From the NCBI GenBank assembly GCA_052168235.1, contig JBQLZK010000109.1, positions 1-14,712 of the forward strand: a stretch of DNA of 14,712 bases, read 5' to 3'. Every line of letters starts with the position of its first letter. Positions within the stretch are counted from its first letter, which is position 1. Origin of the DNA: Thainema sp. (lineage in GTDB: Bacteria > Cyanobacteriota > Cyanobacteriia > Phormidesmidales > Phormidesmidaceae). Positions 1,998 through 7,305 of the stretch are shown piece after piece. Both the position numbers and the translations under genes were made by a program. The notes below the pieces were generated by a model. That model saw nothing but the letters and a program-made list of their open reading frames with translations. It made no database searches and was not told the DNA's origin.

Positions 1998-3854
1998 TTA
2001 CGCTTCAGCCTGGACGCGATCCTTAGGGAATAGATGCTTGAGCTGGATGGTGGCAAGAGTCGTTACCAGCGTGCCAACTGCGATCGCAACAATATATAGC
2101 CCGACATTTTCCACTGCATTGGGAATGGCCAGCACGAAGATGCCGCCGTGGGGGGCGCGCAGCGTACAGCCAAACAGCATCGATAATCCACCCGCGATCG
2201 CCGATCCGGCGATGCAGGCGGGAATAATCCGCAGCGGATCGTTGGCGGCAAAGGGAATCGCGCCTTCGGTGATGAAGGAAATGCCCAATACGGAAGCGAC
2301 TTTGCCCGCCTCTTGCTCAGCCTGATTGAAGTACTTTCTTGAAACAAAGGTCGCGAGCGCCAAACCCAGCGGCGGTGTCATGCCAGCCGCCATCACTGCC
2401 GCCATCGGCGCATAGATATCGGTGGCTAACAGGCCAACAGCAAAGGTGTAAGCGGCTTTATTGACCGGGCCACCCATATCGACCGCCATCATCGCGCCCA
2501 GAATTAATCCCAACAGCACCGCATTGGTGCCGCTCAGGTCTTCTAAGTAAGCCGCTAGTCCATCCATAATGAACCGCACGGGTGTGCCAAACACATATAC
2601 CAGCAGCAGTCCGACGATTAAGGTGGCTAGCAGAGGAATGACCAGTACGGGCTTTAAGCCTTCAAAGTTGGCGGGTAGATTGACCTTATCGCGGATCAAT
2701 TTAGCGACATAACCCGCTAAGAAACCGGAGAGAATGCCGCCCAGGAAGCCCATATTCAGGTTCGCAGCTAACAAACCGCCAACTAGACCGGGAGCCAGAC
2801 CAGGCCGATCGGCAATGGAAAAGGCGATGTAGCCGGACAGGACGGGTACAATCAGCGTAAAGGCGGCCTCACCCCCAATCTGCATCAGCGCTGCACCAAA
2901 GGTGCCTTCTTCAGGATTAATGCCAAACACAAAGGACAAAGCAATGATTAAACCACCCGCCACAATCACGGGCAGCATGTACGACACACCCGTCAACAGG
3001 TGCTTATAAGGCCCAGAGCGCTTTTCTGATCGCTCAGCCTTGGCTCGCTGCACTTCGTCCATATAGCCCTGGCCACCACCCTGACCGCTGCCGAGAACGG
3101 GGGCATCAAGGGCATTGACCACCACTTCGCTGGCATCATGAATGGCCGCCTTGGTCGAAGTTTGGTACACGGGCTTGCCGTTAAAGCGAGACAGATCCAC
3201 ATGGGTATCGGCGGCAATGATGACGGCATCGGCGCGGGCAATCTCGTCGTCAGTGAGCTGATTTTTCGCTCCCACTGAGCCTTGAGTTTCCACTTTGATG
3301 TCGTGACCAAGCTTTGCCGCTCCCTGCTTCAGAGCTTCAGCTGCCATAAAGGTATGAGCAATGCCCGTGGGACAGGAGGTAATCCCGACAAAGAACTTTT
3401 GGGTATCAGCAGGTGGTTCACTGGTTTCAACCGCTGGACTGGGAGCCGCAGTTTGAGGTACGGTGCCTGCGCCTGTTTCTCGATTCATCGTCCCATTCTC
3501 CGGCAGCGGATCGTAGGGATGGGGCGTTGTTCGCTCTAGATTCGGCAGTTGCTTCACCAGCGCCACCGCATTTTGAATCACCATTTCGGTGTTGCGGATT
3601 GCTTCACTGGTTGAAACAGCGTAGACAGGCTTCCCCTCAAAGCGATCGCGGTTAAGAAACTGGTCGGCTCCCACAATCACCACGTCGGCTTGCTGGATGT
3701 CCGCCTCGCTCAGTTCCGTCAAGACGGTGCCTGTTTGAGCTTCGGCTTTCAGATCGTGACCCAGGGCAGCCGCCGTACGCTTGAGGGCTTCCGCTGCCAT
3801 CTGAGTATGGGCTTCGCCAGCGGTACTGGCGGTAACGGCAACAATTTTAGTCAT
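1998..3854 (-). CDS. fruA: PTS fructose-specific EIIB'BC component, 618 aa
   Basis: Two IIB-Fru domains: IIB' TASTAGEAHTQMAAEAL lacks the Cys, while IIB has TSCPTGIAHTFMAAEAL…KVETQG. IIC motifs YKHLLTGVSYMLP, DMGGPVNKAAY and FITEGAIPFAA. Start moved to ATG 3854 (MTKIVAV) because the longer ORF overlaps fruK. Confidence 0.95.
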   Translation of the reverse strand: MTKIVAVTASTAGEAHTQMAAEALKRTAAALGHDLKAEAQTGTVLTELSEADIQQADVVIVGADQFLNRDRFEGKPVYAVSTSEAIRNTEMVIQNAVALVKQLPNLERTTPHPYDPLPENGTMNRETGAGTVPQTAAPSPAVETSEPPADTQKFFVGITSCPTGIAHTFMAAEALKQGAAKLGHDIKVETQGSVGAKNQLTDDEIARADAVIIAADTHVDLSRFNGKPVYQTSTKAAIHDASEVVVNALDAPVLGSGQGGGQGYMDEVQRAKAERSEKRSGPYKHLLTGVSYMLPVIVAGGLIIALSFVFGINPEEGTFGAALMQIGGEAAFTLIVPVLSGYIAFSIADRPGLAPGLVGGLLAANLNMGFLGGILSGFLAGYVAKLIRDKVNLPANFEGLKPVLVIPLLATLIVGLLLVYVFGTPVRFIMDGLAAYLEDLSGTNAVLLGLILGAMMAVDMGGPVNKAAYTFAVGLLATDIYAPMAAVMAAGMTPPLGLALATFVSRKYFNQAEQEAGKVASVLGISFITEGAIPFAANDPLRIIPACIAGSAIAGGLSMLFGCTLRAPHGGIFVLAIPNAVENVGLYIVAIAVGTLVTTLATIQLKHLFPKDRVQAEA

Positions 3855-3895
3855 AAGATAGCAAGCAATAAATTTCGCAATTTCATGTAACAGGT

Positions 3896-4837: not shown

Positions 4838-7305
4838 AGCTCCCGCACCTCCGCCGCTGTGCGGCAAGCCAGTGCTTTCTTCGCTAATCGCCGCATTTGC
4901 TTCATTGATGTGCCTCGCAGCTTAGCCTTGATTTTGGAAATGCTAGGAATATCCATACTCAGTTCCTTCACGCCCAATCCCGCCAGAATCAATGCGCCCA
5001 GCGGATCGCCCGCCAGACCACCGCACACCCCGACCCATTTCCCTGCGTCGGTCGCCGCCTGTACTGTTTGGCGAATAGCACGCAGCACCGCCGGATGCAG
5101 CGCATCTGCTTGCTTAGCCAGAGTGGGATGCCCCCGATCCATGGCCAGCAGATACTGGGTCAGGTCATTGGTACCGACCGAGAAGAAATCTACTTCCTGG
5201 GCAAACTCTGCCGCCATTAAAACTGCCGTCGGCACTTCCACCATCATGCCGATTTCCACCGGCGGAGCATCCAGTTGCGATCGCACAGACTCCAGCACTG
5301 TCTTTGCCGCCCGAATATCCTCCAGCGTGGCAATCATCGGGAACATAATCCGGATATAGCCACTCTGGGCAGCTCGCAGGATGGCTCGCAGCTGGGTTTC
5401 GAACAGCTCCGTACGTTCCAGGCAGAGCCGTATCCCCCGAATGCCCAAGAAGGGATTGTCCTCGGCGGGCTGATTGAGATACGGCACATGCTTATCGCCG
5501 CCAATGTCCAGCGTTCGCACAATCAGCGGCAGGCCGTTCAGCGCCTGGATCATCTGGCAGAGCGCGTCGTACTGCTCGGTTTCACTGGGCGGCTCGGAAC
5601 GATTGAGGAACAGAAATTCGGTGCGCAACAGACCAACTCCTTCACCGCCCGCTTGAACCGCCTGAGCCGCTTCCGCTGGGCCGCCAATGTTGGCGACAAC
5701 TTCAATCCGGTGGCCATCGGGGGTGAGGGCAGGCTGGAAGCGAGTTTGCTGCTCCACGTCGCGCAGCTTGGCCCGTTCGGACTCCGCCTGCCGCGCCTGC
5801 TCCAGATCCGCCTCGGTGGGTTGGGCGTAGAGTTGGCCACCATCGCCATCCAGAATGGCGGTTTGTCCGGTTGGTAAGTCTAGAATCGCTCGCCCGGCTC
5901 CAGCGACTGCCGGAATATTCAGCGATCGCGCAATGATCGCGGTATGGGATGTCGCTCCACCTGCCGCCGTACAGAAGCCGCGAATCGTTTCGGGGTCAAG
6001 TCCCGCCGTGTCGGAAGGCGTCAAATCATCGGCAATCAGAATTACTGGATGATCCGGCAGCTCCAGCCCCGCATCATCGGAAGCCACCAGCCGCGACAGT
6101 ACTCGCTGGCCCACGTCCCGCACATCAGCCGCCCGCCCCGACAGCACTGGATCAGCTAGAGCTTCCAGTTCCTTGGCACGGGCTTCAATCGCCTGCTGCC
6201 ATGCCCAAGCGGCACTGTGATTGGGCGGAATTTGGTCAATGGCGCTTTGGCGCAGTTCTGGATCGGCCAGAAACTCCTGATGAGCTTGAAAGATCGCGGC
6301 TTTGGCTTTACCGGATCGAGCTTTGACAGCAGTATAGAGTTCGGCTAGATCTGCTTCCGCACTTGCGATCGCAGCTTTTAAACTGGCAATCTCTGCGTCT
6401 GTATCTGCTGCCGTTTCTGAAAACTCTAGCTTGGCCCGATGAAATCGATAGAGCGGTGCGATCGCAAGTCCTGGTGAGGCCGCAACACCGCTAATCGCAT
6501 CGCTGGCCAATTCCAGTGCCGGCAGTTCGACGGGTAATTCGGGAGCCGCTTCTTCCTCCTCTTCCAGTCCCTCTTCCACCGCTTCCTGTAATGCTGCCAG
6601 CGCTTCGGCGGCATCGTCGCCCTTCGCCATCACCCGCACAACGCTATCTTTGCCAACCCCCAGCTTCAGCAGCGACATCAGGCTTTTGCCGTTAGCCACC
6701 TGATCCCCGTAGCGAACGCGCACTTCAGCCTCAAAGGATTTGGCTAAATCAGCAAACACGGTCGCTGGCCGAGCGTGGAGTCCTGTAGGCGCATCAATGG
6801 TCAGATCAACATACTGATCAAATCCAGCGGTATCGAGTCCGCCACCGTTGGCTGCTGCACCGGACTGCGCCCCTGATTGTGCACCCATCAAGCGATCAAT
6901 AATCATTTGGGGATTATCCGTTTCCACCAGTTGCTGCACAGCAGCGGGATCATCCAGCACATGGGTCAAATTGGTCAAAATCTGCAAATGCTCGTCTGAT
7001 TTAGCGGCAATTCCAACTACCAGCCGCACCGTTTCGCCCGGATTCCACTCCACGCCTACGGGCAACTGCACCACAGAAATGCCCGTGGTCAGAATCATGT
7101 CGCGTTTTTCGGGCTGCCCGTGAGGAATAGCAATACTGTTGCCCAGGTAGGTATTGGCCTGTTGTTCTCGGGCCAGCATGCTTTTGACATAGCCCAGTTG
7201 AATATGACCGTTTTCCACTAAAAGCTGACCCGCCTGACGAATAGCATCCTCTTTACTCTTAGCGGTCGCCTTCAAACGAATATTTGTTGGCTTTAAATTG
7301 ACCAT
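4834..7305 (-). CDS. fruB: multiphosphoryl transfer protein: EIIA(Fru)-HPr-Enzyme I fusion, 823 aa
   Basis: EIIA REQQANTYLGNSIAIPHG. HPr GLHARPA and KSLMSLLKLG. EI TSHTAIIARS, GLLRTEFLF, VRTLDIGGDK, NPFLGIRGIR, VGTNDLTQY and VGVCG. Confidence 0.95.
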   Translation of the reverse strand: MVNLKPTNIRLKATAKSKEDAIRQAGQLLVENGHIQLGYVKSMLAREQQANTYLGNSIAIPHGQPEKRDMILTTGISVVQLPVGVEWNPGETVRLVVGIAAKSDEHLQILTNLTHVLDDPAAVQQLVETDNPQMIIDRLMGAQSGAQSGAAANGGGLDTAGFDQYVDLTIDAPTGLHARPATVFADLAKSFEAEVRVRYGDQVANGKSLMSLLKLGVGKDSVVRVMAKGDDAAEALAALQEAVEEGLEEEEEAAPELPVELPALELASDAISGVAASPGLAIAPLYRFHRAKLEFSETAADTDAEIASLKAAIASAEADLAELYTAVKARSGKAKAAIFQAHQEFLADPELRQSAIDQIPPNHSAAWAWQQAIEARAKELEALADPVLSGRAADVRDVGQRVLSRLVASDDAGLELPDHPVILIADDLTPSDTAGLDPETIRGFCTAAGGATSHTAIIARSLNIPAVAGAGRAILDLPTGQTAILDGDGGQLYAQPTEADLEQARQAESERAKLRDVEQQTRFQPALTPDGHRIEVVANIGGPAEAAQAVQAGGEGVGLLRTEFLFLNRSEPPSETEQYDALCQMIQALNGLPLIVRTLDIGGDKHVPYLNQPAEDNPFLGIRGIRLCLERTELFETQLRAILRAAQSGYIRIMFPMIATLEDIRAAKTVLESVRSQLDAPPVEIGMMVEVPTAVLMAAEFAQEVDFFSVGTNDLTQYLLAMDRGHPTLAKQADALHPAVLRAIRQTVQAATDAGKWVGVCGGLAGDPLGALILAGLGVKELSMDIPSISKIKAKLRGTSMKQMRRLAKKALACRTAAEVREL

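Follow-up and report, generated by a model that had tools for sequence, protein, structure and literature searches.

Operons of the order fruB-fruK-fruA, in which FruB fuses enzyme IIA (IIA), HPr and enzyme I (EI) of the phosphotransferase system (PTS), are known from Rhodobacter capsulatus and Xanthomonas campestris, as described in Comas 2008 (PMC2405797), which also gives Pseudomonas FruB two IIA domains and about 960 aa. For the same job, sugar uptake for photoheterotrophy, described cyanobacteria use the GlcP/Gtr porters of the major facilitator superfamily (MFS) or the ATP-binding cassette transporter FrtABC, unrelated proteins that deliver free sugar (Stebegg 2023, PMC10515406). Here we describe a fruB-fruK-fruA operon on a 14.7-kb stretch of DNA (the window), an entire contig (C109) of the genome of the cyanobacterium Thainema sp. 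(G000; 7.54 Mb in 205 contigs, completeness 99.99%, contamination 0.5%). A sequence-only reading of this stretch had held that sugar PTS is generally regarded as missing from cyanobacteria, and Comas 2008 (PMC2405797) does assert the absence in print. With a probability of roughly 0.85, we read the operon as a working, self-contained fructose PTS of the type FruB (multiphosphoryl transfer protein, MTP)-FruK-FruA, together with the entry and transfer history given below; substrate, transport and metabolic fate are assigned from the protein families. The three genes are open reading frames (ORFs) without internal stops:

4834..7305, minus strand: fruB, multiphosphoryl transfer protein IIA(Fru)-HPr-EI, 823 aa, with His62, His177, His454 and Cys761
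3896..4837, minus strand: fruK, 1-phosphofructokinase (PfkB family), 313 aa, its ATG overlapping the fruB stop (ATGA)
1998..3854, minus strand: fruA, fructose-class enzyme IIB'-IIB-IIC, 618 aa, with Ser10 replacing Cys in IIB' and Cys161 in IIB

Domain models supported each assignment. FruB carries the Pfam domains PTS_EIIA_2 (residues 4-137), PTS-HPr (168-244) and the EI domains (272-798) in that order, and exceeded the cut-offs of TIGR01417 (554 bits versus 342) and TIGR01003. FruK scored 343 bits with TIGR03828 against a cut-off of 292, which marks it as the linked 1-phosphofructokinase, and FruA passed both TIGR01427 (439 versus 158) and TIGR00829 (178 versus 77), its two IIB stretches together with PF25554 identifying a fructose-class IIBC with duplicated IIB. 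The N-terminal duplicate, IIB', has Ser10 where Cys is expected, and a residue other than Cys stands here in 18 of the 21 cyanobacterial rows aligned.

The EI His, HPr His, IIA His and IIB Cys are the established phospho-acceptors of such systems. They were located in FruB as IPHG (His62), LHARP (His177) and TSHTA (His454) and in FruA as SCPTG (Cys161), and all four were invariant across the 29 aligned rows (21 cyanobacterial and 8 outgroup), with the EI His and IIB Cys lining up with solved EI and IIB chains. Asp459, Glu530 and His569 of IIC were likewise invariant (21/21 cyanobacterial rows), as was Asp256 in the GAGD motif of FruK (20/20). The operon is under purifying selection, with dN/dS (Nei-Gojobori) of 0.050-0.059 against the congener G001 and 0.081-0.088 against Nodosilinea nodulosa PCC 7104. 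The intact operon with all four named motifs, as first read, thus agrees with ORFs, models and residues, while the ATGA coupling proposed for it occurs at the fruB/fruK junction alone (4837-4834): fruK stops at 3896 and the ATG of fruA lies 41 nt further on, at 3854. This ATG, where homologues begin, is most likely the fruA start, rather than a GTG at 3929. An 11-codon ORF in the gap (window 3886-3851, minus strand), whose stop overlaps the fruA ATG, is probably a chance occurrence. On these sequence features the operon is real, undamaged and in all likelihood functional.

Gene order, single-IIA triple fusion, FruK and duplicated-IIB FruA are all shared with the Rhodobacter/Xanthomonas/Deinococcus-type operon; R. 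capsulatus and X. campestris were likened by description, and the sequences compared were those of Azospirillum, Rhodobacter maris and Deinococcus. Azospirillum brasilense Sp7 has the same order, annotated ptsP-pfkB-fruA, at 53, 50 and 63% identity for FruB, FruK and FruA; the corresponding values were 55, 48 and 60% for Rhodobacter maris and 49, 45 and 56% for Deinococcus radiodurans, whose copy is annotated too. Against the systems of Rhodobacter, Xanthomonas, Azospirillum and Deinococcus, the present one differs in having an oxygenic phototroph as host, in forming a cyanobacterial clade of its own and in the mostly replaced IIB' Cys. Deinococcus has a DeoR gene beside fruB, whereas none was found in five cyanobacterial genomes, all five of which lacked any match to DeoR (PF00455) or LacI (PF00356) regulators. 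Pseudomonas FruB and enterobacterial FPr follow the same operon logic, from fructose to fructose-1-phosphate to fructose-1,6-bisphosphate, but FPr has no EI and needs ptsI, whereas the cyanobacterial FruB unites one IIA with EI in 823 aa. The layout had at first been called the Rhodobacter/Pseudomonas/Xanthomonas type; the single PF00359 stretch keeps Rhodobacter and Xanthomonas in that comparison and removes Pseudomonas with its tandem IIA. In trees FruB was placed among FruB MTPs, apart from the Glc and Dha types, and its N-terminus is IIA(Fru), without a match to a Dha IIA query.

Far from being a peculiarity of one genome, as it had first appeared, the operon is common in the family and occurs in other named filamentous genera. 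We counted as a holder any genome in which the fructose IIC model TIGR01427 exceeded its cut-off. The model did so in 41 of the 173 genomes of the family. Holders numbered 30 among 53 genomes in genus g17, 35 among 123 with a completeness of at least 90%, 2 among 14 in family f24 and 2 among 401 in an even phylum-wide sample with only two other family members in it; the genomes are kin, so these counts are not independent. Among the best 80 of 135 related stretches, from which named holders and loci were drawn, were N. nodulosa PCC 7104 (L054), other Nodosilinea, Phormidium tenue FACHB-1052, Leptolyngbya FACHB-8 and FACHB-60, Shackletoniella, Tildeniella, Oculatella LEGE 06141, Symplocastrum and an Elainellaceae metagenome-assembled genome (MAG). 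FruB homologues with the same five Pfam domains, known from FruB alone, came from Kovacikia, Drouetiella, Crinalium, Trichocoleus, Phormidesmis, Vacuolonema, Egbenema and Microcoleus FACHB-1515. All three ORFs were whole and stop-free in 23 of 31 cyanobacterial-type loci (one of them titled 'uncultured bacterium'), the other eight being cut by contig ends, and fruK lay between fruB and fruA in all 23. The proteins already bear automatic RefSeq names. In the open-access literature we found no report of a cyanobacterial sugar PTS, and what PMC7901476, PMC9043136 and PMC5668215 describe concerns other bacteria; subscription papers, strain genome reports and supplements lay largely outside this search, so a prior mention is possible.

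Around the Nodosilinea-type loci the same neighbours return: 15 of 29 loci have a potA-like gene upstream and 16 of 29 have bicA close by, consistent with vertical descent in this group. In L049-L069, fruA is usually followed by the bicarbonate transporter gene bicA and a cluster that we read from its sequences as cation/proton antiporter-like.

The trees, all quick searches without bootstrap, point to an old entry into the phylum. In the concatenated FruB-FruK-FruA tree the 21 cyanobacterial rows formed one clade against 8 outgroups with full support (SH-aLRT 100), and the clade returned with support 100 (18 of 26 rows) when the tree was redone under a mixture model after Azospirillum and Deinococcus had been included and five redundant rows removed. 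We also built a full-length FruB tree from 62 rows, 18 of them unnamed representatives of 50%-identity clusters, leaving out 21 near-redundant rows. In it 28 rows, 24 of them cyanobacterial by name or handle and 4 without a name, formed a clade (support 98) whose sister group comprised Rhodobacter maris, Roseospira, Rhodospirillales, Telmatospirillum, Thiorhodococcus and relatives. Since the cyanobacterial copies form one clade beside proteobacterial FruBKA, the simplest reading would be a single old entry from a proteobacterial-type pool, with the direction deduced from tree position. A foreign origin for the phylum, proposed from the sequence alone, is in this way supported by phylogeny.

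Acquisition by this genome was probably horizontal too, and the trees make another cyanobacterium the likely immediate donor. In a host tree of RpoB, SecA and HolB, G000 and G001 fell outside the 23-row family core, next to the Elainellaceae MAG (support 97); their genus, g1, is nevertheless filed in family f1. For groups named after the trees had been seen, this host tree rejected a clade of G000/G001, G002 and Nodosilinea (approximately unbiased test, p-AU 1.9e-9; RpoB alone 2.8e-4, SecA alone 1.5e-4), whereas the operon tree supported that same group at 100 and rejected the host-type clade (p-AU 3e-39). Identities between G000 and G002 were 56.8% for HolB, 83.6% for FruB and 76.9% for FruK, and between G000 and G019 61.9, 68.0 and 58.5%. 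The conflict between the operon copy and the host tree argues for a later transfer between cyanobacteria.

Three further features were mapped in the window:

7742..7791, minus strand: promoter-like motif lying 436 nt ahead of fruB and its start codon on the upstream side, shared by the fru operons of the Nodosilinea clade, with a putative function
7496..7560, strand not assigned: REP-like palindrome of the host in the leader, with 44 similar sites on 33 G000 contigs
1917..1964, minus strand: terminator-like 20-bp stem-loop past the fruA stop, with 2 overlapping hits versus a shuffle mean of 0.2

The upstream motif occurred in 22 of 36 loci, namely 21 of the Nodosilinea clade and the window, and in none of 12 more distant loci; the set had comprised 38 loci before two letter-identical rows were dropped, and one locus offered only 129 nt. 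The G001 copy has decayed and no longer fits the pattern. The G000 genome contains one exact match and four with one mismatch, the single exact match being partly by construction because the pattern was written after the sequences were seen. As the divergent neighbour differs between the window and Nodosilinea, the motif travels with fruB, and we infer that the ancestor of G000 and G001 received operon and promoter-like motif together from the G002/Nodosilinea side. The history would then run from one old entry, through vertical retention in the Nodosilinea clade and patchy loss, to at least one later transfer between cyanobacteria.

Several measures tie the operon to the genome in which it was found. 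The cyanobacterial context noted at first reading held up: the operon contains 8 HIP1 octamers, compared with a median of 6 for 1337 genome windows of 5.3 kb, and the window HolB lies above the PRK07399 cut-off (437 versus 230). Codon usage was host-like (Karlin B in the 36th-60th percentile and G+C at third codon positions, GC3, in the 68th-86th, among 3186 long ORFs), and the contig carries the sole close copies of holB and tmk in G000. In G001 the operon proteins are 90.6, 86.5 and 90.4% identical (FruB, FruK and FruA), in step with HolB at 90.7%. Of nine sequencing runs listed, none was an RNA run, which says nothing about expression. Contig pieces listed from four sequencing runs were short, and none spanned the stretch; one 293-nt piece, without differences, crossed the fruB start into the leader. 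We did not use such pieces as support, because the best runs may be the window's own source. Two sets of plasmid records (224 and 240) showed no cyanobacterium in the rows listed or among their 10 most frequent genera, which does not amount to absence from plasmids.

In the proposed mechanism, phosphoenolpyruvate (PEP) would phosphorylate EI at His454, from which the phosphoryl group would pass to HPr His177 and IIA His62, all inside FruB, and then to Cys161 in the IIB domain of FruA, whose IIC domain would import fructose and release fructose-1-phosphate. FruK would use ATP to convert this into fructose-1,6-bisphosphate, joining the pool common to glycolysis, gluconeogenesis and the Calvin cycle; from there carbon could proceed through aldolase, or through fructose-1,6-bisphosphatase to hexose phosphates and glycogen. 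A PEP synthase could recycle the pyruvate, and G000 has two homologues (73% and 55% identity to the L071 protein). In 3 of 29 loci, from different lineages, ppsA stands divergent beside fruB (L071:1508-4045, L078:299-2725 and L133:3511-6054), which is possibly a PEP-recycling link. On these assignments the operon may support photoheterotrophic or mixotrophic use of external fructose.

The operon had been described as complete and in need of no other PTS gene, and none other turned up in G000 by tblastn with the three Fru proteins, which returned only PEP-synthase-like and PfkB paralogues; no glucose-class IICB was found either. The suggested bypass of 6-phosphofructokinase (PFK) is sound chemically, yet there is no gap for it to fill: G000 possesses two genes for PFK, two GH100 invertases and one fructokinase-like PfkB (below cut-off), so a missing PFK or fructokinase does not explain the operon. 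Salvage of sucrose-derived fructose, also suggested, is unneeded as an explanation, given this fructokinase-like PfkB and the presence of the operon in PCC 7104, a genome with no GH100 match. External uptake does explain it, since neither a close GlcP-type porter (best 26% identity) nor an FrtA-class binding protein was found in G000. PCC 7104, which carries fruBKA, is reported to grow with DCMU (3-(3,4-dichlorophenyl)-1,1-dimethylurea) on glucose, fructose and sucrose (Stebegg 2023, PMC10515406, citing Rippka 1979). Its genome gave no match to a PF13407 binding protein, a glucose PTS or a GH100 invertase, and the phenotype fits the operon without proving the route.

Some of our observations weigh against the reading of a fructose PTS with this history, and we set them out beside the explanations that they might favour. 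The best full-length model for FruA, PRK10712, reached 678 bits, under its cut-off of 793, and FruA also matched mannosylglycerate and fructose-like models (PRK09765, 418 bits; PRK11404, 320 bits). Fructose-class enzymes II can take other sugars. These scores, together with the two GH100 invertases of G000, would suit a functional PTS with a main substrate other than fructose, for instance mannose or a mat osmolyte (mannosylglycerate, glucosylglycerate), or one that mainly recaptures fructose leaked from the cell's own sucrose turnover. We consider this unlikely: both competing scores are far under their cut-offs (763 and 806) and under the fructose score, a FruK above the 1-phosphofructokinase cut-off sits mid-operon in 23 whole loci, no glycosidase gene family recurs next to the operon, and recapture is further opposed by the finding of a GH100 invertase in no more than 2 of the 5 operon-bearing genomes tested. 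The PCC 7104 genome also encodes an MFS sugar porter above the TIGR00879 cut-off, so that its growth on fructose need not use the PTS. Less probable again is that the proteins serve mainly as a PEP/pyruvate-sensing phosphorelay with transport secondary. The retention of HPr Ser208, the Ser46 equivalent, in 20 of 21 cyanobacterial rows and the divergent ppsA genes speak for such a role, but permease and kinase are conserved like FruB and travel with it, and neither a DeoR nor a LacI regulator was found in the five genomes searched, a search that did not extend to HPr kinase.

As to origin, the window is a whole contig of a fragmented assembly, the operon has 56.4% GC against 50.0% for the genome (holB and tmk being equally GC-rich), it ranks at the 97th percentile of 1337 genome windows in tetranucleotide distance, and the copy in G001 is flanked by other genes than that in G000, all of which could be raised in favour of an assembly chimera, a contaminant contig or a silent recent insertion. 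That explanation is now scarcely credible and already largely refuted. We had rejected a chimera or contaminant on HIP1, codon usage, the host repeat in the leader, the G001 copy with FruB diverged to the same degree as HolB, the holB and tmk genes and dN/dS of about 0.05, and the operon also sits on multi-megabase scaffolds elsewhere (for example L054, 6.1 Mb). For the history, the EI-domain-only tree, a quick search, left the cyanobacterial rows in three unresolved groups; the sister position of the FruB clade is no proof of a proteobacterial donor; the host tree comprises three genes, its tested groups having been chosen with the trees in view; and GTDB files G000 and the proposed donors under one family. 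The self-contained fructose PTS, with one entry and a later transfer, is nonetheless our preferred reading.

Other EI fusions occur in these cyanobacteria. The DhaM-type IIA-HPr-EI, also an EI-HPr fusion, has no permease and feeds dihydroxyacetone kinase; its EI domain is only 42-47% identical to that of FruB and falls outside the FruB clade. This type made up 29 of 30 loci returned from 35 EI-positive genomes among the 401. Examples are L139-L168, L132 and L199, the last with dhaK following, and DhaM-type fusions are frequent in family f22, where 26 of 45 genomes were EI-positive. One genome, G011, carries all three EI fusion types.

We also found a second self-contained PTS, an IIA(Glc)-HPr-EI with a glucose-class IICB that bears an extra C-terminal part. 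The IICB model TIGR02002 exceeded its cut-off in 36 of 173 family genomes; both PTS systems were present in 18 and at least one in 59. Its loci include L130:6987-14768 (G019), L127-L129, L131, L163 and L292-L299. In L130, nagB and nagA lie one gene beyond it, which makes N-acetylglucosamine a candidate substrate, yet the glucose model outscores the Nag model (673 versus 503 bits).

The remainder of the window holds a glyoxalase-family gene (347-748), a S-adenosylmethionine-dependent methyltransferase gene (864-1853) that was called Sll0418-type at first reading and passed the cut-off of none of the best 25 of 38 NCBIfam models matched, a solitary FAD-binding subunit of a xanthine-dehydrogenase-like enzyme without partner subunits in the window (7870-8721), and an ordinary dCache-HAMP-PAS-GGDEF diguanylate cyclase of 1165 aa (10769-14266). 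REP-like palindromes occur at 7496-7560, 1917-1964 and about 8731-8815; the first and last of these regions draw many contigs from unrelated sequencing runs. Rfam gave no match anywhere in the window.

What we describe is a known system in an unexpected phylum, directly testable, and the mechanism itself is textbook. New here are the single cyanobacterial clade, the transfer between cyanobacteria together with a promoter-like motif, a strain in culture whose phenotype matches and which can serve for tests, and the second, glucose-class PTS. We lean slightly towards a broader view, in which sugar PTS belongs to the normal carbon metabolism of a branch of thin filamentous cyanobacteria and had so far escaped notice, an old fructose PTS there still moving between genera with its promoter beside an independent glucose-class PTS; it would be the main hexose entry where GlcP and FrtABC are missing, as in G000, and the first PEP-driven transport in an oxygenic phototroph, tied to the light-dark PEP pool without FruR/Cra. 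The operon offers a candidate explanation for the 1979 phenotype of PCC 7104 that can be tested in the cultured strain, and a native three-gene module for engineering cyanobacterial sugar use. It also poses the question of how transport that consumes PEP can run alongside the Calvin cycle, and a third means of uptake in a lineage common in mats and soil alters the prediction of mixotrophy from genomes.

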